Part shown: positions 9,143 to 41,600 of the stretch, in pieces
Numbering within the stretch: position 1 is the first letter of the stretch
Layout of the letters: each line of letters opens with the position of its first letter
Assembly: GCF_004010195.1 (NCBI RefSeq)
Contig: NC_057718.1
Span: forward strand, 74,444,210-74,495,971
DNA: 51,762 nt
Source of the DNA: Chiloscyllium plagiosum
Taxonomy: Eukaryota
Reading direction: 5' to 3'
Notes under the pieces: generated by a model
What the model saw: the letters and a program-made list of their open reading frames with translations, nothing else
The model's database searches: none
What the model was told of the DNA's origin: nothing
Made by a program: the position numbers and the translations under genes

Positions 9143-9317
9143 AGAAGAACAAACTGCGGATGCTGGAGATCTGAAACACAAACTGAAATTGTTGGCAAAA
9201 CTCAGCAGGATTGGCAGCACCACAACTGATGAAGAGTCACTAAACTCGAAACATTAATTCTGCTTTCTTCCCACAGATGCTGCCACACCTGTTGAGTTTT
9301 GCCAGCAATTTCGGTTT
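9143..9317. mobile_element. Inverted PLE-pLTR-derived element with hammerhead-like core
   Basis: Inverted arms; CTGATGA-A-GAGT-CACTAA-ACTC-GAAA at 9226-9251; ~17-bp TSD (2 mismatches) at 9126-9142 and 9318-9334. Confidence 0.75.
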
Positions 9318-11835
9318 TTGTAGCCTTTATAAATCCATCCTTTGCAATTGCACCTTCATTAAAGTCACAGTCCTTTTAAACGTGTTTTCTTTAAACCCTG
9401 ACTTTTACTTTTCTGACAGAATCTTTCACTAGATTTCTTTAAATGGGCTTGTTTCAGCTTAAATAAATTCTGAAGCTTTCCTAATTCCATTGCTCCAGCC
9501 CACTATTTTTCTGGCACTTTTAATATTCTTTGCAGCTGTCTTTCTGGAGCCTAATGTTAATCATAATGATGCCTACTGAAAGAAATGGGAACTCTCTTTC
9601 ATACTTCGTTGTCTTCCCTTTCTGGTCTTACACTACTTTTCATAATATTATTTTCTTTTTCTTTAAGGATCTCTAATTTTACTTCCTGGAACCTTCAGTA
9701 ACTCTTAACAGAGTCTCCTTTGCTAATATCTCTGTATTTTTGAGATTTGGATGGCTTTTCTCTCTTTTCCTAACTGTTAAAGTGCTCTTAAAGTGCTGAA
9801 CTCACTTCCTTGAAAACCCTTCTTCTGGTATTCTTTTCCCTTCAAGGTAGGGGATCAGATACACACTGCAGAAACCACGTGATAGTTTCCTAGGTGACCA
9901 CTTTGTGGTATTTTCTACCTCTACCAGGAGTTCAATGACACCAATTATCCTTTATTTTTGCTTTGTCTTGGGGTCCTTGGTTTAGTATAAACCATTGAAG
10001 AGTGTCTTCAGAAGAAGCATAATTCTTACGCAACAGATAACTTTGGATAAGGATAAGACTGGTTCTCGGGTGAATGCACCAAATTTGGGGATGACTACTT
10101 ACAAGAGTATTTTAAGGAGGAACTGGAGAGATAAATTAGAGGGTGGGTGTTTAAGCGCAAGCACACATCTGACATGGAGGAGCCTTTTAAAGGCTGCTCA
10201 GAGTTTAAGACTGGCATGTTCCAATGAGGTTGAAAGATAAGGATGGCAAGATTCAGGAACCCTGGATGACAAGAGACATTGAAGGTTTATTCAGAAAGAA
10301 AAAGGAAGTATACGCATGGTTTAAGAAACTGAAATCTGACAAGGGCCTTGAGAATTATAATGCAATACTTAAACACAGAATTAGGATGGCTAGAATGGGT
10401 CATGAAATATCCTTGGTCAGTAGGATTACGGAGAATCCCAAGGTACTTTATCCACATATTAGGGCCAAGACGTTAACTGGGGAAAGGCTAAGTCCTTTCA
10501 AGGACATAGGAGAGATTTTATGTGTGGAGCTGGAGAAAGTGGGTGAGGTCATTAATGAGTGCTTTGCATCGGTATTCACCAAGGAGAAGGGCATGGAGGA
10601 TAGTAAGCTTAAGGAGTGGTATATTAATATTCCAGGGCATGTCGATATTAAGAAGGATATTGTCCACCCTTAAATCTCCAAGGTCTGGTAAGCGCTATCC
10701 CAGAATGCTGAGGGAGACAAGGGAAGAGATTGCTGGAGTCTTGACAGAGATCTTTATACCCTCTTTCGCCAGAGGCAAGGTCCCAGAACACTGGAGAACA
10801 GCCAGTGCTGTTCCTTTGTTAAGAAAGGTAATGGCATAATCCAGGAAATTATAGGCCAGTGAGCCTAACATCAGTGGTAGGGAAATTATTGGAGAAGATT
10901 CTTAGGGACAGGATTTATTTGCATTTGGAAAAGAATGAAGAATTAAGAGTAGTGGGGAAGTTTTGTCTCACAGATTTGATTCAAATTTTTTAAAGAAGTG
11001 ACAAAGATGATTGGTGAGGGTAAGGCAGTGGATGTTGCCTATCTGCACTTCACTAAAGCATTTGACAAGGTCCTGCACAGTAGGCTGGTCCAGAAGATTA
11101 AGTCACATATGATCCACAGTGAGTTGGTAAGTTGGATGCAAAATTGGGTTGGTCATAGAAATCAGAAGGTAGTTGTGGAGGGGTGCTATTCTGACTGGGT
11201 GTCTGTGACCAGTTGAGTTCTGTGAGGATCTGTACGATGTTGTTTGTAACATAGCTAAATTATGTAGTTGAAAATCTAGGTGGTCTGATTATAGTAAGTT
11301 AAAATACATCATAAAAATCAATGGAGTTGTGTATAGTGAGGATGGTTGTAAAAGGATATTATGGGATATAAATCCATTGGAATGTTGTGCACAGAAATGG
11401 CAGATGCAGTTTAATCTGGACAAGTGTGAGGTGATACATTTTGGGAGGTCAAATGCAAGAGGAAAGTATACAGCTAATGGCAGGATCCTTGGAAGCTTTG
11501 ATAATGAGAGGGATCTTGGGATGCAAGTCCGTAGCTCCCTGAAATTGTCAGCACAAATGGAAAAGGTGACAAAGAAGGAGAACAGTATGCTTGCTTTCAC
11601 TGGTTGGGGCACTCTGTATTAAAGTTGGCAAGTCATGTTGCAGCTGTATAAAACTTTAGTTAGGCAACATTTGGAGTAATGTATGCTGTTCTGGTCTTCA
11701 CATTTTATGAAGGATGTGAAGATTTTGGTGAGGCAGCAAAAGAGATTTACTAGGATTTTGCCTGGATTGGAGTGTATTGGACAAAATTCGAATGTTTTCC
11801 TAAAGCACTGGAGACTGAGGGGTGACTTGATAAAA

Positions 11836-12098
11836 GATTAGATTAGATTCGGCCCAACAAGTCCACACTGACCCTCTGAAGAGCAACCCACCCCCTTACA
11901 TTTACCCCTTCACCTAACACTATGGGCAATTTAGCATGGCCAATTCATTTTTAGACTGTGGGAGGAAACCAGAGCACTTGGAGGAAACCCACGCAGGCAC
12001 GGGGAGAACTTCCAAACTCCACACAGACAGCTGCCTGAGGTGGGAATTGAACCGGGGTCTCTGGTGCTGTGAGGCACCACTGTGCCACCGTGCCACCC
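11836..12098 (-). mobile_element. HE1-type V-SINE
   Basis: tRNA-derived head with B box GGTTCAATTCC, V domain (GTGTGGAGTTTG...GGGTTTCCTCC) and (AATCT)n tail. Confidence 0.9.
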
Positions 12099-12393
12099 AC
12101 AAAAGTATATAAAATTAAGAAAGGCATGGATTGGGTGGATAGTCAGAGTTTTCTTTCTCAGGGTGGAAATGTCAAAAATTTGGGGGAGAAAAGGTTGAAG
12201 GTGAGAGGGGGAAAATTTAAAGGAGATGTGTTCGCCAAGTTTTTTGCACAGAAGAGGAGCAGGTGCCTGGAATGCACTGCCCGGGGAAGTGGTAGAAGCA
12301 GATATAATAGACATGTTTAAGAGGCATTTAGACAGACACGTGAACAGGCAAGAATATGAGAGATATGGACCACATACAGGCAGATGGGATTAG

Positions 12394-12465
12394 ATTAGAT
12401 TAGATTAGATTACATTACAGTGTAGAAACAGGCCCTTCGGCCCAACAAGTCCACACCGACCCGCC
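12394..12465 (-). mobile_element. 5'-truncated HE1 SINE tail
   Basis: (GATTA)n plus AACAGGCCCTTCGGCCCAACAAGTCCACACC. GGATTAG is duplicated at 12387-12393 and 12466-12472. Confidence 0.85.
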
Positions 12466-13547
12466 GGATTAGTTTATTTAGAATAGCATCATGGTTGGTG
12501 CAGACATGGTGGGCTGAAGGGCCTATTCCTGTGCTGTACTGTTCTATGTCCTATTTGATAAAACCCTCTAACAAGATGTTTAATTGCAGGGGTAGCAATA
12601 AGCTACAACTATAGTTTGTCAGTCTAACTACTAAGACCTTTGGGAGTTAGTACAGATATATCTGCTCCCTCTGAAAGTGAGAGCAGAACCCATCCACAGA
12701 CTGTATAAGACATCAGTAGAATGGGTGGAACTAATGTAACATGAATATTAATCCCCTCAGAACCATTATCTGATACAATAGATGGGTGTGGCACTGATAT
12801 AAAGAGGGTGAGCGTTAATGATAATTGGAATAAGAGAAGGTACCTTGACAGAGATTGATAGATGCACCTACAAAGTATATTGGTTTCAGCAGTGATGTAC
12901 AAGAGAAAGCTGACGAAGGAAAAGTGAGTCATTTTTCTTTCTCTGATCAGTTCATTGAACCTGTTGGAGCTCTGTACCCTGGAGGGTGGCAATTTCTAAC
13001 TGATGCCACTTTCTCACTGGGTGACTGGTGAAGAACTCCAGATTTCCATCAGGCATTACTCCTGAACAACCTAGCTCTAAATTTATTGTATGCCTTCTTG
13101 ATTATCTTAAACTCCTAAAATTAAGTCGCCTTTAAAATGTTCTAAAATTCAAATAAATGTATCGTCTATATACCCAGTCTTCATACCTTACATTCTTACA
13201 TATTAGTCTGATGAATAGATGCTGCATTCACTCCAAGACCTGTGTATCCTTTTTGGGATGTAGTGCCCAAAATGGAGTATATCGAGAACTTTATGTAATT
13301 GTAACTCTATTGGAAATTCTATTCTAATCTAATGTCGGTGCTCTAAACCTTGAAAACCCCTAACTGGGAGGTGGGCTCGCAGCATGTTAATTATGGCTAA
13401 CACAGTCTGATGCAGATAGCTGGCCTCCAGGACTAGTGCATACACTAAAGCTATACAGATATTTTTGAACCTTTACTCCAATCTACTAACTTTATCTTGG
13501 GTAAAAGTGAGGACAATTTGGCTCACTTGATTGCACTTTGAGACAAT

Positions 13548-13871
13548 ATCATAAAATCCCTACAATGTGGAAACAAGTCCACACAGACCCTCTGAACAGT
13601 AACCCACCCAGACCCATTCCCTGTACCCTATATTTACTTCCGGCTAATGCACCTAACCTTCACATCCCTGAACACTAAGGGCAATTTAACATGGCTAATT
13701 CACCTAACCTGTACATCTTTGGACTGAGAGAGGAAACTGGAGCATCTAGAGGAAACCCACGCAGACACAATGAGAATGTGCAAACTCCACACTGTCACCC
13801 GAGGCTGGAATCAAACTCAGATTCCTGGTGCTGTGAGGCAGCAGTACTAAACAATGAGCCACTGTGCCATC
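13548..13871 (-). mobile_element. HE1-type V-SINE (older copy)
   Basis: Collinear with 17401-17716 in reverse complement. Confidence 0.88.
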
Positions 13872-14399
13872 AGATAACACCAGTTAAACATCACAGTCCT
13901 ACAGCAGCTTGATAGGCGATACAGCCATTAGAGGTTAGGACCACTTAACTTGGTCTAATGCACTTGCCAATGATCATTAATCATTCATTGTGCTGAATTA
14001 TGAGACATCCACTGCATCTGTTACTGAGTTTATAATTACTTGGTGATAATTGATAGCTCACTGCATGGAGTCAGTGGATAAAGATGCTGACAGATTTACC
14101 ATTACTACAAACATGAAATCCAGGCAATAGATTTTATTTGGCAATTATCTTTTTCCATATGGTTCATAATTACCATGGAGGATATAAACAGGATATTTAG
14201 CTCAATCAGCTATCGTTGCATCTATGCTCCCGTCATTCAGCAACTAACTAGAACAGTGTATCTTTTTGCCCCTCATTTTCCCTCAAAATTATCCAGCTTC
14301 CCTTTAAAAACATATATGTTAGTTGCCTCACCAACTCCCCATGATACTGAGTCCCCCATCTCACTATTTCCTGGGTAAGCAAGTTTATTCTGAAAGCTG

Positions 14400-14690: not shown

Positions 14691-15006
14691 TCATCACTAT
14701 GACTAGATTTTTGTCACATTCACACCTCCACTTTCCTTGAATATCCTGCTTCTCTACCATCTAGCAATTTTACCAATGAAATATCAACACTGCTTGTATC
14801 CAACACCATTGTGTACTGAGTTACCTCTATTCCTTGGTGATTTCAATTTTAACTTATTATGTTCTCTCACCATTGAGTTATTCAGTTACTGTCCCCTCAT
14901 TTCTCCCTCCATATAAAAACGTCTTAGTTACTTTCATAGCCACGCTCTCGATCTTGCCATCTCTCACGGCTTTACTAATTTCTTCATGCCAATCTCATGG
15001 TAAGGC

Positions 15007-15235
15007 CAGAAAGTGTTGGAGAAACTCAGCAGTCGAGCAGCAGCTGTGGAGAGTGAAAGGTGTACTGCTTTGAATCTCATGACACCTCTTCAAAACTTCC
15101 AGATTCCAAAGAAGAGTCATGGGACTCAAAATGTTAATACTGTTTCTCCTCCACCGATGCTGTCAGACCTGTTGAGTTTCTCGAGCAGTTTATTTTTAAC
15201 TCAGATTTCTATCACCCACAGTATTTTGCTTTTAT
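15007..15235. mobile_element. Decayed inverted PLE-pLTR-derived element
   Basis: Inverted AAACTCAGCAG / CTGTTGAGTTT arms; decayed core AAGAAGAGTCATGGGACTCAAAA; possible 12-bp TSD at 14995-15006 and 15236-15247. Confidence 0.65.
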
Positions 15236-16149
15236 TCATGCTGAGGCTTTCTTTGATCCCGTCCCTACACCTGTTTCCATTGACTTTCCCTCCTCTTCCC
15301 AATCCCACTTTATTCTGTGTCTGCTCCTGATAAAAACTCCCTGAATTCACTCACAACATCAATATCAAAATTCCAGCTGCCTAACCTTTGAGCCTCCATT
15401 CACTAGAATATTTCTTCAGTGACTGATCTGTTCAATTACGCCTCCCACCTCTGCCAGTAATGCCCTCATTCTTTCATCTGCTTTATTCTCCCTGTTATAG
15501 CATACATCTTCACTTCCTTATGTCTAACATATGTTTACTTGAATACTGATGACGACAGCTTGTTTAGACATTCATCACATGACCTTGCTGCACCAAATGA
15601 AGCACAAATGTGTTCTGCTCTGTTCTGGCATGAGTATTATCTCGGGATAACCAGCTGTCTTTGTCCACTACAAACAATCATCTTAAATCCCACTCACCAA
15701 CACTTTATTCCAACAACAATTGAATTCAATTCTATTTGTTTCCTATTCCCCGATACATCCACTGAATTTATTTTCTCTGAGATTAACTTCCTGCTCCCAC
15801 AAGTCTATTTCCGCCAAATTACTGACCACCCAATTTGTATTATTTGCTTAACAATAAACTCTCCTTAGATGAAAGGGCAGATGATAAAGAAACACAAAGG
15901 GAAATATAATTTATCACAATTAACTATTAAAATGAAATGGTGAAAAGTAATTTTTCATATTTGTATTAAGCATTGCTGTGATATGACAGGCTACTTTGAA
16001 AATTATGTGTGGCAAGAAATTTATGAAGATCACATTTTCTGAACGACATTATTACTTTGAGTTAATATTTTAATACAGTCATTCAAAAGCCGCCTAAATT
16101 AATTGAGGAAGATCTGATGTACTTCCAGTGATGGAAGTGTGTTACATCA

Positions 16150-16965: not shown

Positions 16966-17108
16966 AAAGAGACAAAAACTGTACACAGTGCTCCAGCTGT
17001 AGTCTTACCAATGCCCCGTACAACCGTAGCAAAACTTCCTTACTTAACTGCAGTCTGTTCTTCTTTAACGCGATGGTTACATTCTTGTACAACCCTGCAT
17101 TACAGAAA

Positions 17109-17322
17109 TGATTTGGAGATGTTGGTGTTGTACTGGGGTGTACAAAGTTAAAAATCACACAACACCAGGTTATAGTCCAACAGGTTTACTTGGAAGCACT
17201 AGCTTTCAGAGCACTGCTCCTTCATCAGGTGACAACCACCTGATGAAGGAGCAGCGCTCCCAAAGCTAGTGCTTCCAATTAAGCCTATTGGACTATAACC
17301 TGGTGTTGTGTGATTTTTAACT
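17109..17322. mobile_element. Palindromic element carrying a hammerhead motif on each strand
   Basis: 86-bp inverted arms (17146-17231 and 17237-17322) with a 5-bp spacer. 14-bp TSD (1 mismatch) at 17095-17108 and 17323-17336. Confidence 0.85.
17197..17231 (-). ncRNA. Minimal type I hammerhead ribozyme motif
   Basis: CAC-CTGATGA-A-GGAGC-AGT-GCTCT-GAAA-GC-TA-GTG: helix I CAC/GTG, helix II, palindromic AGCT in helix III. Confidence 0.75.
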
Positions 17323-17400
17323 CTGCATTATAGAAAAACTGTGCTTTAGAAACATCGCTTAAAGTGTTGGCACTGTAATCGCATTAAAGCCAACACTAAT

Positions 17401-17716
17401 GGGCAGCACGGAGCCACAGTGGTTAGCACTGCTGCTTCACAGCGCCAGAGACCCGGGTTCAATTCCCGCCTCAGGCGACTGACTGTGTGGAGTTTGCACA
17501 TTCTCCCCGTGTCTGCGTGGGTTTCCTCCGGGTGCTCCTGTTTCCTCCCACAGTCCAAAGATGTGCAGGTCAGGTGAATTGGCCATGCTAAATTGCCCGT
17601 AGTGTTAGGTAAGGGGTAGATGTAGGAGTATGGGTGGGTTGCGCTTCGGCGGGGCGGTGTGGACTTGTTGGGCCGAAGGGCCTGTTTCCACACTGTAAGT
17701 AATCTAATCTAATCTA
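17401..17716 (+). mobile_element. Full-length HE1-type V-SINE
   Basis: tRNA-like head, B box GGTTCAATTCC at 17456-17466, V domain, CR1-like 3' end GGGCCGAAGGGCCTGTTTCC and (AATCT)n tail. CpGs retained. Confidence 0.93.
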
Positions 17717-21239: not shown

Positions 21240-21259
21240 GGTGTGTGTGTGTGTGTGTG
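21240..21259. repeat. (GT)n microsatellite
   Basis: About 9 GT units. Confidence 0.9.
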
Positions 21260-21873
21260 AAATATTATGAGCAATTCAAAAATAAAATGGATTTAAGACC
21301 ATAAAGGATACAATAAATTTCACTGAATGTGTTCACGCACTGTTAGATTTCAGTCTGTATAGTTCCCATTATATAAAAGGCCCATATTAGAAATAGGATA
21401 AATGGCACTAATCAATTACCATCAATATCAATTACGAATTCAGCACTTAGCATATCTACAGAAAGTCTTGAGCAGGTTTAAGTGCTCAATAAATAATTTG
21501 CGGCTCGATTGTATTTCCTTACCTTTAAATTCAAACATCACGCATAAAATCCATCTGATTCAAGCATTGTTGTTTACAAATTACTATCTGCCCTTCCAAC
21601 CATCCATCTTTCAACAAGTATCATTTTACTAATCACCTCGCTCCATGTCTATCATTCTCTTCTCCCCACCAGGATTATTATTGATCACTTATATCCTGTG
21701 TTGCATATAACTGGTGGATTTTCCTGCCCCACAACAGATGTTAACATATGGACCGTGATAGGAAGATTGGGTATATGTTTGGGAAGAGAGGTTGTTGGGG
21801 GTGGAGAAAGAGGAAAAAAATAGAATATTAAATATGTGCAAATTAGGTTTACAGTAGACCTTAGAAAACAAAC

Positions 21874-22003
21874 ATTCCTGAAGAAGGGCTTATGCCTGAA
21901 ACGTCGATCCTCCTGTTCCCTGGATGCTGCCTGACCTGCTGCGCTTTTCCAGCAACACATTTCCATCTCTGATCTCCAGCATCTGCAGACCTCACTTTCT
22001 CCT
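21874..22003 (+). mobile_element. Solo PLE pLTR fragment beginning at a hammerhead motif
   Basis: ATTC-CTGAAGA-A-GGGC-TTAT-GCCT-GAAA-CG-TC at 21874-21905, followed by the pLTR tail. Confidence 0.8.
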
Positions 22004-25616: not shown

Positions 25617-26740
25617 GGAGAAAGTGAGGTCTGCAGATGCTGGAGATCAAAGTTGAAACTTTATTGCTGGAACAGCACAGCAGGTCAGGCAGCATCCAGG
25701 GAACAGGAGATTCGACGTTTCGGGCACAGGCCCTTCCTCAGGAATGAGCAGAGAGTGTTCAGCAGGAGAAGATAAAAGGTAGGGAGGAGGGACTTGGAGG
25801 AGGGGAGTTGGAAATGTGATAGGTGGAAAGAGGTCAAGGTGAGGGTGATAGGTCGGAGGCGGAGAGGTCAAGAAGAAGACAGCAGGTCAGGAAGGCGGTG
25901 CCGGGCGGGAAGGATCCGGCTGAGACAAGGTGGGCACCTTCCCTTGCAACCGCAGGAGGTGCAACACTTGCGCCCACACCTCCCCCCTCACTTCCCTCCA
26001 AGGCCCCAAAGGAAACTTCCATATCCGCCACAGATTCACCTGCACCTCCACCCACATCATCTACTGCATCCGCTGCAGCCGGTGTGCCCTCCTCTATATT
26101 NNNNNNNNNNNNNNNNNNNNNNNNNNNNNNNNNNNNNNNNNNNNNNNNNNNNNNNNNNNNNNNNNNNNNNNNNNNNNNNNNNNNNNNNNNNNNNNNNNNN
26201 NNNNNNNNNNNNNNNNNNNNNNNNNNNNNNNNNNNNNNNNNNNNNNNNNNNNNNNNNNNNNNNNNNNNNNNNNNNNNNNNNNNNNNNNNNNNNNNNNNNN
26301 NNNNNNNNNNNNNNNNNNNNNNNNNNNNNNNNNNNNNNNNNNNNNNNNNNNNNNNNNNNNNNNNNNNNNNNNNNNNNNNNNNNNNNNNNNNNNNNNNNNN
26401 NNNNNNNNNNNNNNNNNNNNNNNNNNNNNNNNNNNNNNNNNNNNNNNNNNNNNNNNNNNNNNNNNNNNNNNNNGGGGAGAAAGTAGCATAGAGTACAATA
26501 GGTGAATGGGTGTGGGGACGGAGGTGATAGGTCAGAGAGGAGGATGGTGGAAGGTAGCAAAGAGTACAATGGGTGAAGGGGGGGTGGGAATGAAGGTGAC
26601 AGGCCAGAGTGGGGGGTGGAGTGGATAAGTGGAAAGGAAGATAGGCAGGTAGGACAGGTCATGGGGACAGTGCTGAGCTCGAAGGTTGGAGCTGGGGTGA
26701 GGTGGGGGGAGGGGAAATGAGAAAACTGGTGAAATCCACA
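25617..26740. mobile_element. Penelope-like element remnant (inverted pLTR plus GIY-YIG), containing a gap
   Basis: Minus-strand pLTR at 25617-25925. Plus-strand GTFPCNRRRCNTC...FTCTSTHIIYCIRCSRCALLYI at 25930-26100. N-gap at 26101-26473. Confidence 0.85.
25710..25745 (-). ncRNA. Minimal type I hammerhead ribozyme motif (best-preserved copy)
   Basis: ATTC-CTGAGGA-A-GGGC-CTGT-GCCC-GAAA-CG-TC-GAAT: full core, perfect helices I and II, palindromic ACGT. Confidence 0.8.
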
Positions 26741-27240
26741 AAGTACAGGACCCACCACCGATCCTTGTGGCATTCCACTGGTTACAGGCTTCCAGTCTGA
26801 AAAGCAACCCTCCACCACCACCCTCTGTCTTCTACCTTTGAGCCAGTTCTGTACGCAAATGGCTAATTCTCCCTGTATTCTATGAGATCTAACCTTGCTA
26901 ATCAGTCTCCCATGGGGAACCTTGTTGAACGCCTTACTGAAGTCCATATAGATCACATCTACTGCTCTGCCCTCACCAATCTTCTTTGTTACTTCTTCAA
27001 AAAACTCAACCAAGTTTATGAGACATGATTTCCCATGCACAAAACCATGTTCATTATCCCTAATCAGTCCTTGCCTTTCCAAATACATGTACATCCTATC
27101 CCTCAGGATTCCCTCCAACAACTTGCCCACGACCGACATCAGGCTCACCGGTCTATAGTTCCCCGGCTTGTCCCTGCCACCCTTCTTGAAGAGTGGCACC
27201 ACATTAGCCAACCTCCAGTCTTCCGGCACCTCACCTTGAT
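26741..27240 (-). mobile_element. CR1 RT N-terminal fragment
   Basis: VPEDWRLANVVPLFKKG...YMDFSKAFNKVPH...GMPQGSVVGP. Confidence 0.92.
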
Positions 27241-27718
27241 TTATTAGTCCTACCTGGTGCCTGCCTGCCCTGACTGTCTGACTCGCTTCTGTTCTCAACT
27301 GTACCAGTCTCAGATTGATCTCTTTCCTCACTATCTCCCTGGATGCCACCACTCCCCTCCCCCCCAATTTTATTAGTTTAAATCTTCCTGAGCAGCTCTT
27401 GCAAATCTCCCTGCCAATATATTATTCCCCTTCCAATTTAGTTGCAATCTGTCCTTCTTGTACAGGTCACTTCTACCCCAAAAGAGATTCCAATGATCCA
27501 AAAATGTAAATCCTTCCCCTATACACCAGCTCCTCAGCCATGCATTCATCTGCTCTATCCTCCTATTCCTGCCCTCACTAGTTCTTAGCACCGGGAGTAA
27601 TTCTGATATTACTACTCTCGAGGACCTTTTCAAATTTCGGCCTAACTTTCTGTAATCTCCCTTCAGAATCTCAACCTTTTCCCTTCCTATGTCGTTGGTT
27701 CCAATGTGGACAATGACC
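27241..27718 (-). mobile_element. CR1 ORF1 SGNH-esterase C-terminus and spacer
   Basis: VVIVHIGTNDIG...VVISELLPV...DLYKKDRLQLN...GRFARAAQEDLN*. Confidence 0.85.
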
Positions 27719-27882
27719 ACTTGCTGGCCCCATTGCCAGACCATAGCAACACGACGATTGGAGGAAGAATACCTCATCTTCCGCCTAGGAACCCTCCAAC
27801 CACAAGGGATGAACTCAGATTTCTCTGTTCCTTGGATGCTGCCTGACCTGCTGCGCTTTTCCAGCAACACATTTTCAGCTTT
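27719..27882 (+). mobile_element. PLE GIY-YIG C-terminus fused to a pLTR piece
   Basis: RRLEEEYLIFRLGTLQPQGMNSDF followed by GGATGCTGCCTGACCTGCTG. Confidence 0.8.
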
Positions 27883-27884
27883 TG

Positions 27885-28130
27885 TCTCTGGACAGTACCC
27901 AGGCTTGGGCTAACAAGTGGCAAGTAACATCGCAAACTCCCCTCCAAACCACACACCATCCTAAATTGGAAGTATATCTCTGTTACTCTCCAATTATTCG
28001 ATCAAAATCTTGGAACTCTCACCTAACAGAAGTGTGGGAGTACCTAAACTGCAAAGATAGCAGTTGTTCAAGAAGGTAGCTCATCACCAGCTTCTCCAGG
28101 GCAATTAGGGATGGTCACTAAATGTCAGTC
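27885..28130 (+). mobile_element. 3' part of a LINE, probably the same family as 23520-25347
   Basis: LDSTQAWANKWQVT; FKKVAHHQLL-like terminus. Confidence 0.6.
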
Positions 28131-28137
28131 ATAGAGT

Positions 28138-29571
28138 CAAAGAACAAAGAATAAAGACAGCCCAGGAACAGGCCCTTTAGCCCTCCAAGCCTTAGCTGAT
28201 CCAAATCCACTGTCTAAACCTATCGCCCAACTCCTCTGCTCCCCACCTATTCATGCATCTGTCCAGACCCACCTTAAAACAATCTACTGTGCCTGCCTCT
28301 ACTACCTCTGCTGGCAATGCATTCCAGGCACCTACCACTCTCTGTGTAAAGTACTTTCTGCATGTATCCTCCTTAAACTTTCCACCTCTCACCTTGAACA
28401 TGTAACCTTTCATTATTGAATCGCTCACCCTGGGAAAAAGCTTGTCTCTATCCACCCTGTCTATACCCTTCATGATTTTATAAACCTCAATCAGTCCCCC
28501 CACAATCTCCTAACCTACTCAACCTCTCTTTGTAGCTATCACCTTCTATACCAGGCAACATCCTCGTAAGGGGAAAGTGAGGTCTGCAGATGCTGGAGAT
28601 CGGAGCTGAAAATGTATTGCTAGAACAGCGCAGCAGGTCAGGCAGCATGTAGGGAACTGGAGAATCGACGTTTCGGGCATAAGCCTTTCCTGAAGAAGGG
28701 CTTATGCCCAAAACGTTGATTCTCCTGTTCCCTGGATGCTGCCTGACCTGCTGCGCTGTTCCAGCAACACATTTTCAGCAACATCCTCGTAAACCTTGTC
28801 TGCACCCTCTCCAAAGTATCCACATCCTTTTGGTTATGTGGCGACCAGAACTGTACACAGTATTCTAAATGCGGCCGAACCAACATCTTGTACAATTTTA
28901 ACATGACCTGCTGGTTCTTATACTCAATACCCCATCCAATGAAAGCAAGCATACCATATGCCTTTTTAACCACTCTATCCATCTGTACAACCACCTTCAG
29001 GGTACAATGGACCTGAACTCCCAGATCTCTCTGCTCATCAACTTTTCTCAAGGCTCTTCCGTTTGCTCTGGTATGAGACTTCCCAAAATGCATCACCTCA
29101 CATTTACCTGGATTGAACTCCATCTGCCACTTCTCCGCCCAACTCTCCAGTCTATCTATATTTTCCTATATTCTTTGACAGTCCCCTATACTTTCTGCTA
29201 CTCCACCAATCTTCGTGTCATCTGCAAACGTACTGATCAGACCAACAGTGCCCTCTTCCAGATACTTTATGAATATCACAAACAACAGTGGTCCCAGTAC
29301 TGATCCCTGCAGAACACCACTGGTCACCTTTCTCCATTTCGAGAGCTCCTTTCAACTACTACTCTCTGTCTCTTGTTGCTCAACCAGTTCTTTATCCTCC
29401 TAGCTAGAACACCCTGCACACCATGTGACTTCACTTTCTCCATTAGTTTACAATGGGGAACCATATCAAACGCCTTATTAAATTCCATGTATATGACATC
29501 TACAGCCCTTCCTTTATCTATCAACTTAGTCACTTCCTCAAAGAACTCTATTAAGTTGGTAAGGCACGATC
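28138..29571 (-). mobile_element. CR1 RT-to-tail fragment
   Basis: SCLTNLIEFFEEV, EFNPGKCEVMHFG, RPHLEYCVQFWSP, FTQRVVGAWNALP. Confidence 0.92.
28570..28777. mobile_element. Inverted PLE-pLTR-derived element inside CR1
   Basis: Two opposed pLTR arms meeting in the hammerhead region. Perfect 15-bp TSD GCAACATCCTCGTAA at 28555-28569 and 28778-28792. Confidence 0.88.
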
Positions 29572-30644: not shown

Positions 30645-30746
30645 TATCTGAAGAAGGGTCACTACAATCAAAATCTTAACTCTGCTCTCTCTCTCCACAG
30701 ATGCTGCTGGATCTGCTGAGATTTTCCAGCAATTTTTGATTTCATT
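30645..30746 (+). mobile_element. Decayed PLE pLTR fragment
   Basis: CTGAAGAAGGGTCAC...CCACAGATGCTGC, homologous to 33309-33410. Confidence 0.7.
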
Positions 30747-31384
30747 TCTATCATACTCTTGGACTATGACTTGTAAATAGTGGGCAAATATTAAAGAGTC
30801 AGGAAGTGAGTTACTCACCACAGAATTCCCAGCCTCAGGACTTCTGCTGTAGCCACAGTATTGTAAAGCTGGTTTTGTTCAGCGTCTGGCCAGTGGGAAC
30901 AATTGTTAATTATCATTGCAAGTAGCTATTAGATCCAATCTAGGAAAGTGCTTTTGAGGAATATCATATGTACAGCACACATTTTTAGCAAATATTGCTT
31001 TTAACAGGAAATTGAATTGGAAACAATTGTGTGGATGAACTTTGGTGAAATACTGAGTCTTAATTTGGATTTAAAATACATCATTGGCAGATTGATCTTA
31101 ATGATGTGGACTATGGCAAGAAATCTGGGAGAGGTACATAGGAAGTTGAGCAAAGTATTTCCCAACATTGCCATTAACAAGGAGCATTTCCCAACAAAGT
31201 TCTGGGCAGTGAGACTGGATTCTTGCCAGTGGGAAGTGGCAAGTGACCTAGTAACGGGGATTATTATTCATTATCACATTCATTACTACTTGATCTCACC
31301 TCCCTACTTCAAATCGATTTTTTTCTCCCCACATCCAGTCCCTTCCTACTTACATCCGCAATTCCTCTGATGCTTTATAACACA

Positions 31385-31847: not shown

Positions 31848-31849
31848 CG

Positions 31850-33437
31850 GGTTCCAGCTGCCTCTTCTTTGCCATGGATATGCAATCCCTTTGCAGATTC
31901 TGCTCCTGTCAGGTTGATTCTGCTTCTTCCTGGAAAAACGGGCTTGAAATGTCCCCATCCACTAGCACTCTGCTCCACCTGTCTGAGCTCACCTTCACTG
32001 TATGCCTGTCTCTTTGTGGGGTACATGGAAGATTCCTAATTTCAGTTCTAGTCCAACCATCCAACCGTCACCAACAACTTTTTTTCTGGTATATTAATAA
32101 TAGCATCAGTGCTGCTTCTCTCTCTCATCTAGAATTGAAAACGTTTATCATTTTCGCGTCCAATTTCCACCCCTGTCTCACTTTCACCTGGTCCATTTCT
32201 GAATTCTTCCCTTCCTCAACATCTCTGTTTCCAGTTTTGGGGATAGGCTGGCTACCAATATCCACTTGGTACACTTTTGACACCTCACACCTTACTTCCT
32301 ATAAAGACTCTATTCCATTCTCCCAGTTCCTCCATCTCTGTTGTGTCTGTTCTGATGATGCCAGCTTCCACAAGAGAGCCTTCAAAATGTCCAATTTCCT
32401 CCTCAATTGAGAATTCTCCAGTACTGTAGTTGACCTGGCCCTCAGCAAGGTATGACCCATCTCCTGCACTTCAACCCTCACTCCCTCTCTTCCCTCCTTC
32501 AACAGCGATGTGACCAACCTTGTCCTTATCTACCATCCCACCAGCATCCAGATCCAGAAGATCGTTAGCCACCTCCAGTGGATGCAGTCACCAGACATAT
32601 TCCCCTCCCCTCCCTTGCCAACTCTCCACAACGACTGCTCCCTCCAGGACAACTTGGTCCACTCCTCCATCATTCTCATCACCTCCCCCACAGCCCACAG
32701 CATCTTCCCCGGCAACTTCAGAAGGTGTAACACCTGTCCATTTACTTTCTCCCTCCTCAGTATCCAAAGGTCCAAACATACATTTCAGGTGATGCAACAC
32801 TTTATCTGCACTTCACACAATCTAGTCTACTGCATTCACTGCTCGCAATATGGTCTCCTCTACATTGGGAGAATGAAGCATAGACTGTGTGACTGCTTTG
32901 CAGAACACCTATACTCCGTCCACAAAAAAGACCCTGAGCTTCCATTTGCCTGGAATACACCACCTTGTTCCCTGGCCAAAATCTCTGTCTCAGGCTTGCT
33001 GTAGTGCTCCAGCGAAGCTCAGCGCAAGGTGGAAGAACAGCACCTCATTTTCAACTTGGGAACTTGACAGCCTTCTGAACTCAATATTGAGTTCAACAAT
33101 TTGAGGGCTTCAGGCATCTTCTCCCTTGTCCTTACCCCAACTCCCACACACCAAGCCATTCATTTTCCTAGCCTGACAGTTATTTCCTCCTTTGTATGTC
33201 CAACTGTTCTTCTTTGTCTTTGGGCTATATCTCCACCAATCATTTATTCCTGAATTCTTCCCTCCAACCTATCTTCTGCATAAAAAACAACTATTTCCAG
33301 CTACCTTTAGTTCTGAAGAAGGGTCACTGGATCTGAAATGTTAGCTTTGATTTCACACCACAGATGCTGCCAGACCTGCTGAGGTTTTCCAGCAAATTCT
33401 GTTTTTGTTTCAGATTTCCAGCATCTGCAGTTCTTTC
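31850..33437 (+). mobile_element. Penelope-like element (partial RT, Cys-rich linker, GIY-YIG, pLTR); probably Neptune-type
   Basis: FFWYINN (decayed YIDD), SIPFSQFLHLCCVCSDD, RRCNTC...NLVYCIHCSQYGLLYIG; pLTR with hammerhead at 33309-33346. Confidence 0.88.
33309..33346 (+). ncRNA. Minimal hammerhead ribozyme motif
   Basis: AGTT-CTGAAGA-A-GGGTC-ACTG-GATCT-GAAA-TG-TT-AGCT. Confidence 0.65.
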
Positions 33438-34698
33438 AGGTTTGTTTCACCTTGTCAAAATGCAGGCTCCTATCCAGCCATGTGCTAGATAGAAACTAGA
33501 TGTGAAGAATTTCTGATCTGAAAGTCAGACCATGTACCTGGCAATTCCAGCTCACCACTTCCTCCTCCAAACTTCCAACATGAATATCTAGGACCAGCAT
33601 CTCAGAGCATGTTCAAAGAGAAGCAGCCGCACACATCCCAGATCCATAGATCTTGGCATACAACAATTATTAACATCTCAGCATTTCATGATTCATTCTG
33701 ATCCATTTACAAAAGCTTCTGAACTTTAATACTGCACTTTGGAGCACACTAGCACCTCCCATTGCAATGCTGCTGCAAGGACATTTTGCAGCAGAGAACT
33801 ACAGCAGCTCAAGAATTGGATTAGATTATATCTCAGGGCTTTTTGCTTGCTCTCTTAATGCTGATGTACATACCCAGATACTCACAGCCTCTCTACCTGG
33901 TCCTGCCTTGCCTTATCCTGTCTTGCCATTTTGCACTTTGCCACCTCAGAGAGAACCAACAGGCACATTGTATTTCGTTCTTTCCTTGTCTTTCATCATA
34001 TCTTATCATGCTTGTCAGCAACATTCCCACTCCAAGGTTCCTCCATTTTCCATGCATGCCAATTCACACATCAGCTATTGTCAGTAAAGGGGATGGGCAT
34101 CTTGCTGTATGGCAATCGCACAACAGCACCATGCACCAGCAGTGTTCACAGAAAACAAACACGTATTCCAACAAAACAGGTACACTTCAAAGTCTAAGGG
34201 GATGTAATCCTCAGTCAGGAACAGTAAGTCAAGGGCAGCCTCTGAAACCAGTCCCAGGGCTTGATCATGGTCAATCAGATGTTCAGGGAGGTTGAATTCA
34301 GGATCCTCTCCTTGTAGCGGGTGAGGAGGCAAATGTTGTGCACTATACCACCTGTGTTGACTCTTTCTGCCTTAACATAGGCTGTTTTTGCCTGGTATGA
34401 GAAAAGGGGAGGGATTGAGTGAATTGAAAGTTGTTGGCACAGCTGTTAGTGTTGGTATAGGTGGAGGAAAAGTGGCAAGGGGTAGTCCAAGTGAGTGAGT
34501 AGGCAGCATAGAAGCCCTGTAGTGTTAGTGATGTGTGTGCCTTGCATAAGAATGAGCGAAGGAAGATGTTTACTGCAATGGTAAGAGTCATAGAGCATGA
34601 AGCTTGGTGAAGGTGAGTTCAGTAGCAGAGATAGAAGAGTATGAAATAGCAGAGAGAAGATGTGCATGGCAGTTTCAGAATCCGCATTTTGACAAGGC

Positions 34699-34797
34699 AA
34701 AACAAAACTGGAAGAACTGGAGATGCTTGAAATCTGAAACAAAAACAGAAATTGTTGGAAAATCCCAGCAGGTCTGGCAGCATCTGTGGAGAGAAAT
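34699..34797 (-). mobile_element. PLE pLTR tail fragment
   Basis: Reverse complement of 33357-33436. Confidence 0.75.
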
Positions 34798-34799
34798 CG

Positions 34800-35334: not shown

Positions 35335-35379
35335 AATGCCGCAATAATTCCAACCTGAGTTTCTGATACAGAAGCTGGG

Positions 35380-36690
35380 CCTCTTGCTGAGATATTTGTA
35401 TCATCGATAGTCATAGGTGAGATGCTGGAAGACTGGAGGTTGGCAAATGTGGTGCCACTGTTTAAGAAGGGCGGTAAAGACAAGCCAGGGAACTATAGAC
35501 CAGTGAGTCTGACCTCGATGGTGGGCAAGTTGTTGGAGGGAATCCTGAGGGACANNNNNNNNNNNNNNNNNNNNNNNNNNNNNNNNNNNNNNNNNNNNNN
35601 NNNNNNNNNNNNNNNNNNNNNNNNNNNNNNNNNNNNNNNNNNNNNNNNNNNNNNNNNNNNNNNNNNNNNNNNNNNNNNNNNNNNNNNNNNNNNNNNNNNN
35701 NNNNNNNNNNNNNNNNNNNNNNNNNNNNNNNNNNNNNNNNNNNNNNNNNNNNNNNNNNNNNNNNNNNNNNNNNNNNNNNNNNNNNNNNNNNNNNNNNNNN
35801 NNNNNNNNNNNNNNNNNNNNNNNNNNNNNNNNNNNNNNNNNNNNNNNNNNNNNNNNNNNNNNNNNNNNNNNNNNNNNNNNNNNNNNNNNNNNNNNNNNNN
35901 NNNNNNNNNNNNNNNNNNNNNNNNNNNNNNNNNNNNNNNNNNNNNNNNNNNNNNNNNNNNNNNNNNNNNNNNNNNNNNNNNNNNNNNNNNNNNNNNNNNN
36001 NNNNNNNNNNNNNNNNNNNNNNNNNNNNNNNNNNNNNNNNNNNNNNNNNNNNNNNNNNNNNNNNNNNNNNNNNNNNNNNNNNNNNNNNNNNNNNNNNNNN
36101 NNNNNNNNNNNNNNNNNNNNNNNNNNNNNNNNNNNNNNNNNNNNNNNNNNNNNNNNNNNNNNNNNNNNNNNNNNNNNNNNNNNNNNNNNNNNNNNNNNNN
36201 NNNNNNNNNNNNNNNNNNNNNNNNNNNNNNNNNNNNNNNNNNNNNNNNNNNNNNNNNNNNNNNNNNNNNNNNNNNNNNNNNNNNNNNNNNNNNNNNNNNN
36301 NNNNNNNNNNNNNNNNNNNNNNNNNNNNNNNNNNNNNNNNNNNNNNNNNNNNNNNNNNNNNNNNNNNNNNNNNNNNNNNNNNNNNNNNNNNNNNNNNNNN
36401 NNNNNNNNNNNNNNNNNNNNNAAGATATAAAAGAGACCTAAGGGGCAACTTTTTCACACAGAGGGTGGTACGAGTATGGAATGAGTTGCCAGAGGATGTG
36501 GTGGAGGCTGGTACTATTGCAACATTTAAGCGGCATTTGGATGGGTATATGAATAGGAAGGGTTTGGAGGGATATGGGCCGGGTGCTGGCAGGTGGGACT
36601 AGATTGGGTTGGGATATCTGATCGGCATGGATGGGTTGGACTGAAAGGTCTGTTTCCATGCTGTACATCTCTATGACTCTATGACTCTAT
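35380..36690 (+). mobile_element. CR1 spanning an N-gap
   Basis: EDWRLANVVPLFKKGGKDKPGNYRPVSL before the gap; 3' end with (CTATGACT)n after it. Confidence 0.88.
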
Positions 36691-37078
36691 AACATGGAAC
36701 AAAACAAGGTCAATGTTCACATCAAAACCACTAGAATGTTCCAAATTATTGAGGGACAGAGTAAGGAGGTTTGATATGCCCTAACAACATTTAAGATTTT
36801 GTTTTATACATTTCATCCGGCAAATGTTCCAGAACAAACTTCTGTATGCAACTAAAGTCAGAGTGAATGTTCCAGCCAACAATCCAACCAACCTTCATTA
36901 AATTCTGACAAGCAGAACATAATTAGAAGGTGGTAATGTAAAATTATGCAATGTCATGCTTCTCTGCTAAGATCAATACTGCACTTCGGAGACAAACAAA
37001 GAGAAAATATAAGTTGAGCACTCTTAGTCACTCTATTTCACTTCAATAGTTACTGTTGTGTACAATGCAATAGGGTGT

Positions 37079-37286
37079 GCCTATCGCATTCCCAATGCCC
37101 CTCCCCCAAGTCTGTCTCCCTACCTTTTATCTTATCCTGCTTGGCACACTCTCCTCATTCCTGAAGAAGGGCTTATGCCCGAAACGCGATTCTCCTGCTC
37201 CTTGGATGCTGCCTGACCTGCTGCGCTTTTCCAGCAACACATTTTTCAGCTCTGATCTCCAGCATCTGCAGTCCTCACTTTCTCCT
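37079..37286 (+). mobile_element. PLE pLTR fragment with damaged hammerhead
   Basis: CTGAAGA-A-GGGC-TTAT-GCCC-GAAA-CGCG (cleavage triplet damaged), followed by the tail. Confidence 0.8.
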
Positions 37287-39439
37287 AGTCAGTGGACTGG
37301 GCACTTAACATTTGGAGTTGTCCAGTTCATTTACTAAGCGGTGACCACAGTGAGTCCATTGGGTATGTCCACAGATAATAAGGGGGTTAGGGTTCGAACA
37401 AGGGGTGCATCTAATGGAAATAGACTCAGAAACTTCTTACTTGGGTTAGAAGGCTGCAGGTTGTGGAGAGAAAGGCATCAAGCAGGGTCACATCATATGC
37501 CAGGGGCTTGGAGGGGAGGTGGATATGTGCAGACTCTTGTAGTTGGGTTTGTGGGGACCCAGGGACATGCCAAGTTTACGGAATTTACAGGGATGACTAT
37601 GATGAGGGGAATCTGAATCATTGCAGCCTCATCGATGTTTAGTGGTGGGGGCTGGAAGCCACTGGTCAAACAGCGCTCACTTGCCTTCCATCATGCTGGA
37701 AATCAAAAGTACACAATGGGGAAGAAAATAGCTATGACTACACCAGGTGTGGGTGGATAAGTGTCTTGACCTGTGAGGGAGGGTGTCATAGAACCCAGTG
37801 ATATGAGGACTTTTAAAAGGAACATCATAACACACAGACCCAACACTGTACAGGACACAGACTTGGATGGTCCCTAATGACTGGCCATTGTAATGAACTG
37901 GCTCCCTGTGCAGCATACACCTCTCTACCCAAAACAACATCACCCATCTCATTCACATCAAACATTTGGACAAAGTGGTCAGAAACAGAACAGGGATGGT
38001 TTAGGATGCGGTGCAATGCTGTCAACAGGATAACTGCCCGATATATACCTTGTTCATTGTTGTTTCAAAAGCTGCCACTGCTCTCACCACAGACATCGAA
38101 CCGCATGTGGACATGAATTTAGATATCATGCTGGCACAGTCACATTTGGGGTTACACAGAGACTCAAACAAATAAATGTAGAATCAAAACAATTACACTT
38201 ATACAGACTTGAGAATTGACATATAATGCAATGTCACCCGCTCCTCTATAGTGCCCTCAGTAGATTTTCGACTTTTTCTCCCTCCACTAAGTCTCAGTGT
38301 AATCCCTGATTCTGCAGCTGGGGAATGAAGGGGGCATGCTCAGCAGTGAAGCCTGCTGGCCCCAAAGGTTTGTTTGGGTGATCTGGGGGCACATGTGTTT
38401 TGATGGCATAAACATGCCTTGTCTTCTTGCCAAAGGCTGATTAATTCCCTTTGACTCGACCTTCCTAAGGTCAAAGGGGAATGAATAGGGAGGGGCTTGA
38501 GGGCCTGGCCACTTTTGGAATGTCAGAGATAAGACTTCTGGGAGACTTGCATGTTGTTCCTTCTCAGGTTGGGTGCCTCCTGGCATTGCCTTATCTGCTT
38601 GTGAGGAAGAGGCACCGGGAATGCTCACCACATCCCTCATACCTCTATTGCTCTGACTTTGGTCCTGAAGTCCAATAGCTGTAGTATTAACATGCAGATA
38701 TGTGTGCCTCTAGAGCAGATCCTGAGGCTGCTGGACTGGCTCTACATTGCATCTGCTAATCTATCGTTGGAAGTGAGCAGATGATTGTTTGAATCATTGC
38801 ACAATTGCAACTTCTGGGTAATGAGATCCAAAACACTCCATATGCTTGCCTGTAGTTCATATTGCTCTCTGTGCATTCTAATGAAGTCCCTGATTTTTGA
38901 CATCACAGGGTCCTCTCCCTGCCTTGTACTGGGAAGGTGCCTGCTCCCTACAATCCTCCAGTCTTCTGCCAGTTGCTGGGGCATTTGATCCTTGGCTTCG
39001 AAGTTGTCATAGACTCTTACTAGATTCTGTTTCTAAACATCGTAACGCTAATATTCTCACCAAGGTATCAGTGCTTGAGCTGGTGGGAAGTACAGGAGGC
39101 AGCCTTGCTAATGCTTTCTCTGAGGACTCTAAACTCTTATTCTCAGAGATTGAGGAGGTAGCTTTTGGCTGAGTTGGGTGTGGTTGATATCCCTGATGTA
39201 CCTACAAGACTACAGAGAGAAAAGGCAGAATGGTCTGCTTTCAACAGCAAAGTACACTGACTGACTGACAGTGGGGTCACTGTGAGAGTTGCAGTGAAAT
39301 GAAGAATGCTACATGCTTGTTTGACAGGTGATGATGAGGCCTTAAAGGAGCGAGGGCCAGGATTTACTGCTGTTTGAGCATGAAGACTTTGAATGTTGGC
39401 TACAACTCCACTCATCTGAGCCTTTTTGGCCCAATTACA

Positions 39440-41600
39440 GAGTCAAAGAGTCATAGAGATCTACAGCACAGAAAAAGATCCTTTGGCCCATTGTGCTGTG
39501 TTGGTCAAAAGCAATCATCTAACTATTCTCATCTCATTTATCAGGATGTGGCCTGTAGGTTTGTATTCCTTGGTACCACAAATGTACATCTATATACTTC
39601 TTAAATTTATGAAGGTTTCTGCCTCTACCACTTCTACAGGTAATGAGTTCCAGATTCCCACCACCCTCTGGATGAAATGGTTTTTCCTCACATCTCTGCT
39701 AAATCTTCTGCCCTTCACCTTAAATCCATAGCCTCTGGTCACTGATCCCTCCATCAAGGAGAAATGTCTCGTCCTAACTACCCTATCTCTGCCCCTCATA
39801 ATTTTATACATCTCAATCAAGTTCTCTCTCAATCTCCTCAATTGGAAGGAAAGCAATCCCATTTGGTGGCTGGGGTGGGGGTGGGGGGGGAGGAGGGGAG
39901 TGCGTGGAATGGGTGGTGTTACTATACTTGCACATCAGGAACCCTCTAATCCTCAGTGCTTCCCAGGGTTCTACCATTCATCATGTATTTCCTTTCCTTG
40001 TTTGTCCTGCCCAAATGCATCATCACACATTTATCCAGATTGAATTCCATTTGCTACTGATCAGCCTGTCTGACCAGCTGATCTATATCCTCCTGTTATC
40101 TAAGGCTATTCTCCATACCCCATATGCAAACTTGCTGATCAACATCTATACATTTAAGTCCAGGAGCAAATTACTGCAAATGCTGAAATCTGTACTGAAA
40201 ACAACAAATGCTGGGGATCACAACGGGTTAGACAGCATCCATGGAGTGAGAGCAAGCTAATGTTTCGAGTCTAGATGACCCTTCATCAGAGCTGAAGTGC
40301 AGTGTGGAGGGGGCAGCATTTATTCCATAGTTAGGGGCAGGGATTGGAATGTAGAGTGCTGGGGTGATAGTTCAGATTAAGTGATTGGAATGTGAGAATG
40401 ACATAACAATGGTGTCTAACTGCCAGACCTGAAAGAACAGTCCCACTGGAATGGGGGAAGGGTAGAGAGGACATGCTGACAAAGAATGTAACAACTAAAG
40501 CTAAAAGAAGGAGAAGGCACGGTCATTGGTTCACAATTTGAAGGTGCTGAATTCACAAATATGAAGTCCAAAAGGCTGTAATGAGCCTAGTCTGAAGATG
40601 AGACGTTGTTCCTCCAGATTTTTTGCACTGTGATTCACTGGAGCATTGTAGCATGCTGAGGACAGACATGTGGGTGTGTTAAAATGATTGGCTACAGGAA
40701 GGTCGGGGTCTTGCTAGCGCACAGGCTGGAGATGTTCTGCAAAGCGGTCACCCAGTCTGGGTTCTCCAATGCACAGTAGGCCACATTGGGTGCAACAAAT
40801 ACAATACACAAGATTGGAGGCAGAAATGGTGAAAAGCTGCTTCACCTGGAAAGACTGTTTTGGCCCTTGGATGGTGAGCAGGGAAGAGGTAAAAGGGCAG
40901 GTTGAACCTTCTGTGGTTACATGGGAAGGTGCCGTGGGAAGGGGGTTAGTGGCTAAGGAAAGGACTAGGGTGTCTTAGAGGGAACGATCCCTGAATCATT
41001 GATATAAACCAGAAACAGCAAGGGCCCCAATACCAATCCCTGTGGGACTCCATTGGATACAGGAATTCCAGTCAGAAAAATACACCTCAACCAACACTTT
41101 CTGCTTCTTGCCACCCAACCAAATATGAATCCCATGGCTATTATCCACACAGGCCCTTATCAAAAGCCTTGCTGACGTCCAAGTAGACGACATAAAAAAC
41201 ATTGCTCTCATCTACACAGCTGGTTACATCTTGGAAAAATTCCATCAAATTGGCCAGACATGGTTTTCCCTTAACAAACTTGCTGACTGTTCTTGATTAA
41301 TTCCTGGGATTAATTCTGTTCTTCAGAATTGCTTCTAATAGCTTCCCCACACTAAGGTCAGACTGATTGGCCTGTAGTTCCCTGGTTTATATCTAACTCC
41401 CTTCTTGAACAATGGTACCACATTGGCTGCCCTCCAGTTCTCTGGCACCTCTCCAGAGAGGAACAAAAATGTTTGCAACCATCTATGTTATTCTCTCCCT
41501 TGCTTCACTCAACAAACTGGGATACATTTTGTCCACCCCTTGAGATTTTTCTGTTTTTAAGGCTGCTGGATCCCTCAAAACCTTCTGTCAGTGTTAATTT
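39440..41600 (-). mobile_element. CR1 fragment split by a PLE
   Basis: HFIQRVVGIWNSLP at 39590-39862; GVPQGLVLGPLLFLVYIND at ~40995-41070; RT N-terminus to ~41600. Confidence 0.85.
40162..40995 (-). mobile_element. 5'-truncated PLE (GIY-YIG plus pLTR with hammerhead)
   Basis: GPKQSFQVKQLF...NLVYCICCTQCGLLCIGE; AGCT-CTGATGA-A-GGGTC-ATCTA-GACTC-GAAA-CA-TT-AGCT at 40255-40293. Confidence 0.85.

Follow-up and report, generated by a model that had tools for sequence, protein, structure and literature searches.

Minimal hammerhead ribozymes are known from Penelope-like elements of fishes, the coelacanth, frog and reptiles (Cervera and de la Pena, 2014; PMC4209133), where they show four features: an extra base after A9, a G10.1-C11.1 pair, a palindrome at positions 15.2-16.2, and an arrangement into consensus families. 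Those of schistosomes cleave weakly as dimers and not at all as monomers (PMC4209133). Penelope insertions, for their part, are known to contain an inverted copy, a one-sided tail and a target duplication (PMC8557442; PMC3846280). In the green anole, the Poseidon element PAc nicks and extends both DNA strands in vitro and uses uncut RNA; two internal reverse-transcription start sites define its tail, and its hammerhead cleaves only with the protein and is dispensable for in vitro insertion (Frangieh et al., 2024; PMC11167929). Here we analyse the hammerhead motifs dispersed over 51,762 nucleotides of the shark Chiloscyllium plagiosum (RefSeq assembly GCF_004010195.1, contig NC_057718.1, positions 74,444,210 to 74,495,971), a stretch called the window below. 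With a probability of about 85%, these motifs are minimal type I hammerheads of the pseudo-long terminal repeats (pLTRs) of Penelope-like elements, left in truncated and mostly broken insertions, and their active ancestors likely used self-cutting RNA, weakly and with the help of a dimer or a protein.

All four features of the published minimal hammerheads are present in the window copies. As in other metazoan Penelope elements, the motifs are of type I, have no helix III and a short helix I, and are mostly solo with some close opposite-strand pairs (PMC4209133). They differ by a helix II of 4-5 bp, against 7-8 bp in the schistosome set, by a U-U mismatch in the commonest helix I of one family (family A) and by their cartilaginous-fish host, which we did not find named in the text of that paper. 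Strong 5' truncation, an inverted copy, a 30-40-nt tail at one end and a duplication around inverted units are shared with endonuclease-positive Penelope insertions (PMC3846280; PMC8557442). In contrast to rotifer insertions, duplications are of ~15 nt rather than 8-10 nt (PMC3846280), and whole insertions measure 100-230 nt; moreover, 5' ends cluster at the front edge of the hammerhead, which we did not find stated in the text of either paper. As in PAc, the hammerhead lies ~100 nt upstream of two start sites and no RNA ends are seen at the cut site, whereas the PAc open reading frame (ORF) starts inside stem II and the window remnants carry a CX4CxxC linker of Neptune/Nematis type (PMC11167929). 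Non-LTR retrozymes, which occur in one chondrichthyan genome, are also of type I and derived from Penelope pLTRs, but they are arranged head-to-tail, measure 51-972 bp and are often canonical, whereas the copies described here are dispersed or head-to-head and minimal (PMC7229834; bioRxiv 10.64898/2026.07.22.740005).

Hence, the hammerhead class (2014) and the inverted-plus-tail anatomy (2013-2021) are already known, and as a class the window adds little. We found no paper on shark Penelope hammerheads, nor any such entry in two of the three supplementary files of PMC4209133; other supplements may list such species. What such copies offer, through their number in the assemblies, is start and end points that can test the role of the hammerhead in Penelope elements and the formation of inverted insertions. 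Those of the window suggest copying through an intact ribozyme to a fixed point just before the motif, which fits the in vitro work on the anole element (PMC11167929). Separately, a metagenome scan for 19 nt of the 3' part that the copies have in common gave 119 loci; similarity extends over at most ~40 nt, none carries the motif, and they were set aside as chance matches.

Hammerhead motifs, stems and families

Offsets (+/-) are counted from C3, the first core base. The original prediction, made from the letters of the window, had placed nine hammerheads, and all nine are present, with C3 at 9226 (+), 17228 (-), 17240 (+), 21878 (+), 25741 (-), 28690 (+), 33313 (+), 37161 (+) and 40289 (-); for six of them, the positions it gave refer to the lower-numbered end. 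A strict descriptor (full core and a helix II of at least 4 bp) returns six motifs in the window, against a mean of 0.017 and a maximum of 1 in 60 dinucleotide shuffles. When at least 3/4 helix I pairs are demanded as well, four motifs remain, against 0 in shuffles. The motifs exceed chance and are real.

Their integrity had been overestimated. The core, said to be kept in at least nine copies, is intact in six of the nine, since 17240 carries G12>C, 28690 carries G12>A and 37161 is without U16.1. The complete pattern of core plus helix I, also ascribed to all nine, is found in four (17228, 25741, 33313 and 40289). At 9226 the 5' strand of helix I is gone and the inversion junction sits at C3; at 21878 the core is intact and helix I is down to 2/4 pairs. 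A profile search adds six motif-bearing arms (15094-, 15106+, 28694-, 30648+, 41709- and 45928+), none with a full core, so that the window holds 15 such arms in 12 insertions, six with an intact core and four complete. Core or helix I is broken in 11 of the 15, and only the four complete copies keep a shape predicted to allow self-cutting.

Fourteen arms were tabulated. All have the unpaired extra A after A9, and 13 have G-C or G-U as first helix II pair. The helix II pairs originally listed (GGGC/GCCC, GGGTC/GACTC, GAGT/ACTC and GGAGC/GCTCC) match ours. Helix I is 2-4 bp long, with no canonical helix I or loop 1; its proposed ATTC/GAAT pairing is seen at 25741, just one of six family A copies. 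The commoner 3' strand in that family is GATT (4/6 copies), which leaves a U-U mismatch; in public sequencing runs, the GAAT form at place 37190 makes up 110/1443 RNA reads and 0.5-14% of DNA depth. The palindromic helix III 4-mer is perfect in two of the four complete copies (ACGT and AGCT) and altered in the two of family B (Table 1). Across the tabulated arms, six palindromes are perfect, three have a G-U form and five are broken.

The copies form at least three sequence groups, A (with a variant D), B and C. Groups A/D and B are homologous and have ~100 nt after the motif in common, young family A copies being 84-95% identical, and family C is a single insertion with two arms. Covariation was examined in 11 related A/B/D copies, a set that excludes 15094 and 28694 as well as both arms of family C. 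Pairing is kept in 80% of cells and 5/11 pairs are changed on both sides, against 13-45% and 0-2 pairs in slid controls. The cell count and the covariation score are reached in only 1-2/500 shuffles, both being inflated by relatedness, whereas five double-changed pairs, a relatedness-robust measure, are reached by 132/500 shuffles; this is not significant and counts against our reading. The compensatory stem changes are real, yet they are a handful of non-independent events between lineages. Of the original idea of three or four subfamilies selected for self-cleavage, the existence of at least three groups holds; selection does not follow from a check in which the robust measure fails and the other two are inflated, nor from copies that are mostly broken, and published Penelope hammerheads cleave weakly, need protein and are dispensable for insertion in vitro (PMC4209133; PMC11167929). 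Selection acting on replicating source elements could keep the stems paired while inserted copies would decay neutrally.

Insertion anatomy and the Penelope-like remnants

The anatomy of the insertions is a more informative signal than the hammerhead motifs themselves. The motif is carried by an end module, the pLTR, of ~90-130 nt. Copies stop at two fixed 3' points, ~+90 and ~+125 from C3, and in four public runs the loose 3' ends accumulate over the same two places, 37240-37245 and 37285-37289. Each of the six head-to-head insertions has a tail of ~35 nt on exactly one arm (6/6). Target duplications of 15-18 nt, arm-end overlaps included, surround five of these six, family C among them, and each of the five is reached by 0-1/2870 random flank pairs. 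Single-arm insertions gave no convincing target duplication in 4/4 cases, wider search intervals included. Outside the window the elements are abundant: in each run, one family is matched by over 100,000 assembly fragments.

The assignment to minimal, dimer-type hammerheads of Penelope-like pLTRs, proposed at the outset, is supported by this tail, inversion and duplication anatomy and by remnants of reverse transcriptase (RT) and endonuclease upstream on the same strand. Fragment 32456-33001 matches a stingray protein with a PLE-type domain, which itself matches 54 longer RT proteins, several of them annotated GIY-YIG. These RT homologues map to 31850-33094 (+), 40558-41058 (-), 25933-26100 (+), 27677-27826 (+) and 45953-48006 (-). 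In Pfam, 0/7 decayed non-CR1 fragments matched a family (the other four are pieces of CR1-type long interspersed nuclear elements, LINEs), so that the Penelope link rests on the homologues. Hammerheads 33313 and 40289 sit 219 and ~270 nt downstream of the endonuclease end on the same strand, and a place behind the endonuclease is the known location of pLTR hammerheads. These two sites tie the motif to an ORF in family B; in family A the tie is made through a fusion at 27677 and a neighbour at 25933. The CX4CxxC linker found at 25945 is present in 53/55 homologues and points to the Neptune/Nematis type, a CX2-5CxxC linker being a Neptune feature shared with Nematis (PMC8557442).

Template, mechanism and rival explanations

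Starts are also clustered. Among 21 arms, the 5' start lies within -5 to +5 of C3 in 10 and at +29 to +60 in six; one is at -82 and four are beyond -100. Offsets were read by hand, the test covers the 17 arms that do not reach beyond -100, and motif-bearing copies had served as seeds for the profiles. Within these limits, 10/17 in-range arms and 7/11 in-range insertions start in the 11-nt interval around C3 (p 0.0001-0.0009 per insertion against a uniform null, which is crude). In public runs, depth rises 1.9-3.0-fold across the front edge of the motif (4/4 runs). If cut RNA were the template, starts would fall at +28 to +31; at most two do (27818 and 34798). Altogether, the starts suggest reverse transcription of an uncut RNA beginning at the ribozyme. 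In 5/5 copies with intact upstream sequence, an AT-rich patch lies ~30 nt upstream, as judged by eye and without a control; together with a pyrimidine-A step at -5/-4, also without a control, it would fit a core promoter. Splicing to an acceptor at helix I does not account for the clustering in general: AG precedes two family B copies and none of three family A copies.

These data can be assembled into a mechanism. The element endonuclease would nick both target strands ~15 nt apart, and each nick would serve as primer at one of two fixed sites for the start of reverse transcription, which lie ~35 nt from each other. Both complementary DNAs (cDNAs) would then be joined at their far ends, head-to-head, giving palindromes, much like the twin priming of L1. 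The template would be an uncut RNA that begins with the first strand of helix I. Synthesis on the first pLTR would run off at that end and leave promoterless stubs of 90-130 nt. It is possible, though less likely than not, that the hammerhead forms the first ~36 nt of a capped transcript, that it is the uncut RNA that inserts and that the palindromes record twin priming from nicks 15 nt apart. Were this true, the ribozyme would act as a switch, taking off the cap end and so retiring the RNA, rather than as a processing step for insertion, and the very many stubs of the genome would be a ready read-out of Penelope insertion. Cleavage by the window copies themselves is unlikely, because 1.4-11.6 kb separate neighbouring motifs on the same strand, and close pairs, being inverted, cannot dimerise in cis. 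Dimer cleavage is reportedly covered by Lunse et al. in 2017.

Besides the covariation measure, several observations weigh against our interpretation. The commonest family A helix I carries the U-U mismatch. A hammerhead is the lowest-energy monomer fold in only 1/5 copies, folds of isolated copies are no better than those of shuffles (z -1.65 to +0.80), and co-folding of two copies gives a palindrome-centred duplex for only 1/5; these folding results weigh little because energy models miss the hammerhead core. None of the 22 Rfam matches with E up to 10 is to a hammerhead family. A covariance model of the 11 A/B/D copies scores family C at E=4 and in one arm only, that is, without detectable homology, so that its stem differences are not shown as substitutions at homologous positions; nor has family C an ORF link within the window. 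On the side of the template, the rise in depth is confounded by the divergence of subfamilies upstream of the motif, and of the six arms that start at +29 to +60, two are near the cut site (+29 and +36). In Drosophila, the Penelope transcript starts 46 nt before a 75-nt intron that ends at helix I, and not at helix I (PMC4209133), and Arkhipova et al. (2013; PMC3846280) explained the palindromes by self-priming. Finally, RNA shows no pile-up of starts or ends at the motif edge or cut site in a single-cell polyA library, which is ill suited to the question and cannot show 5'-OH ends. Apparent starts at 37187-37189 are unreadable as cleavage ends, because the reference for reads was the 37161 copy, where one base is missing at the cut site, and alignments break at this deletion.

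The same single-cell run bears on whether the dispersed copies act in their own right as ribozymes, under selection and cleaving host transcripts. Four copies are complete and family A is indeed transcribed, with 3574 reads among 12.96 million records. However, the strands are represented ~40:60 and 96% of the reads run on into unlike sequence, so that they look like passengers in host transcripts. With 11/15 arms broken, the wide spacing and inversion described above, and no cleavage of monomeric minimal hammerheads in published tests (PMC4209133), activity of this kind is highly improbable. Loss of catalysis in these lineages, with the motif retained at the RNA 5' end for its structure or for binding a protein, is somewhat less improbable, and we still regard it as unlikely. 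The weak helix I of family A and a cut site unmarked by 5' ends fit it, as do ribozyme mutants of the anole element that insert normally in vitro (PMC11167929) and Naiad elements that proliferate without canonical hammerheads (PMC8557442). Against it, core, UH site and palindrome are kept over three divergent families while stems and loops change, and the anole motif does cleave with protein, being rescued by a C3G/G8C double change (PMC11167929).

Two further explanations concern how the short units arise. They could be non-autonomous elements, akin to short interspersed nuclear elements (SINEs) or retrozymes, that replicate as 130-nt units through monomers or circles made by the ribozyme. 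Most copies are indeed 90-130 nt long without ORF, some contigs have tandem joints, a few of which restart near the cut site, and retrozymes are reported in one cartilaginous fish (bioRxiv 10.64898/2026.07.22.740005). Yet the window has no head-to-tail motif array, units start before the motif and not at the cut site, the same module stands on ORF-bearing remnants, and the canonical helix I and loop 1 are missing; we judge this origin quite improbable. A stronger competitor, possible if doubtful, attributes the 5' clustering to junction microhomology, or to the polymerase falling off after copying helix I, rather than to a transcript start. The arms at 28690 overlap by a 3-nt inverted match, and palindromic overlaps are known at Penelope junctions (PMC3846280). 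Nevertheless, the non-inverted solo copies 21873 and 30647 start at the same place, the clustering is seen in three families whose helix I sequences differ, and the upstream AT-rich patch, with the reservation made above, speaks for a transcript start.

Catalogue of insertions and other repeats

Table 1. Hammerhead-bearing insertions, pLTR fragments and Penelope-like remnants in the window (strand "." for head-to-head insertions).
Feature	Position	Strand	Remarks
Complete minimal hammerhead, family A	25708..25746	-	C3 25741; predicted cut 25714/25713; arm is part of a complex insertion beside an opposite-strand endonuclease fragment
Complete minimal hammerhead, family B	33308..33348	+	C3 33313; predicted cut 33342/33343; ATGT as decayed palindrome
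Complete minimal hammerhead, family B	40253..40294	-	C3 40289; predicted cut 40259/40258; ACAT as broken palindrome
Complete minimal hammerhead, family C, tail-bearing arm	17194..17233	-	C3 17228; predicted cut 17200/17199
Family C motif, G12>C, tail-less arm of 17091..17336 insertion	17235..17274	+	
Head-to-head family C insertion	17091..17336	.	~14-18-nt target duplication; both arms start at -3
Head-to-head family A insertion	28555..28792	.	15-nt target duplication; tailed minus arm starts at +5 (core truncated), tail-less plus arm at -3 (C3 28690, G12>A)
Head-to-head family B insertion	9126..9334	.	~17-nt target duplication (15/17 match); plus arm begins at C3 9226, tailed minus arm at ~+50
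Head-to-head insertion, variant D	41603..41819	.	15-nt target duplication (14/15 match); minus arm, with decayed motif at 41677-41714, begins at -5, tailed plus arm at ~+40
Head-to-head family A insertion without hammerhead	199..332	.	Target duplication of 16 nt; arm starts at ~+52 and ~+60
Old head-to-head family B insertion	14979..15241	.	Both arms start at ~-4; motifs 15094- and 15106+ decayed; target duplication weak (10/11)
Solo family A pLTR with tail	21873..22003	+	Starts 5 nt before C3 21878; helix I 2/4; no target duplication found
Tailed family A pLTR, extended upstream by 82 nt	37080..37286	+	Motif 37156-37193 without U16.1
Solo family B pLTR without tail	30647..30748	+	Starts at -1; decayed motif with G12>A and loss of helix I
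Family A-like pLTR after assembly gap	45755..46001	+	Motif 45923-45961, core broken
Family B pLTR fragment without hammerhead	34685..34798	-	Starts at +36
Decayed Penelope-like ORF, RT thumb to GIY-YIG C-terminus	31850..33094	+	E 2e-53; upstream of hammerhead 33313
Decayed Penelope-like endonuclease region	40558..41058	-	E 5e-24; upstream of hammerhead 40289
Penelope-like CX4CxxC linker and endonuclease start	25933..26100	+	Inverted relative to 25741 arm; ends in assembly gap
Decayed Penelope-like RT region	45953..48006	-	Split by another repeat
Endonuclease C-terminus fused to family A pLTR at ~+29, beside predicted cut site	27677..27888	+	

Some of these insertions call for comment. The one at 199-332 lies in a T-rich target with a perfect 16-nt duplication, and its arm starts near +52 to +60 may mark a second favoured stop, which 9219 and 41720 would have in common with it. 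The family B copies at 33349-33482 (+) and 34665-34798 (-), 1.2 kb apart, have ~20 nt in common past the tail, with an ATG inside; this is possibly the start of the next tandem unit together with a third start point. The fusion at 27677-27888 runs through a short near-match; this single case could stem from a deletion at microhomology or from a template switch to cut RNA. At 45755-48006, near an assembly gap, the 3' end of a plus-strand pLTR arm meets the 3' end of an RT-endonuclease remnant on the minus strand, which is truncated where the endonuclease begins.

In the public data, head-to-tail joints on contigs lead from the tail end back to 37162-37166 and 37188-37199, and short tandem units thus exist outside the window. 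A>G changes at 37216 and 37255 reach 20% and 32% in RNA reads of one orientation, against 1.4% and 5.4% in DNA bearing the same species label. Adenosine-to-inosine (A-to-I) editing of hairpin insertions could cause this skew; other changes are strand-skewed too, and a few expressed loci may explain it.

Most other repeats of the window are CR1-type LINE remnants (RT, esterase ORF1 and AP endonuclease) at 6450-7745, 26534-27909, 51214-51582 and elsewhere. A 38-nt tandem repeat of 2.9 copies (51149-51258) directly precedes a CR1 endonuclease fragment, and a C/D-box small nucleolar RNA match at 39295-39351 (+), to Rfam sR17, is weak (35.2 bits for a gathering threshold of 36, E 0.00018) and probably due to chance. 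Finally, a second dispersed, SINE-like family with 82-92% identity is found at 11903-12082, 13671-13867, 17427-17616, 42848-43098 and 46489-46784, the last copy interrupting the Penelope RT remnant.

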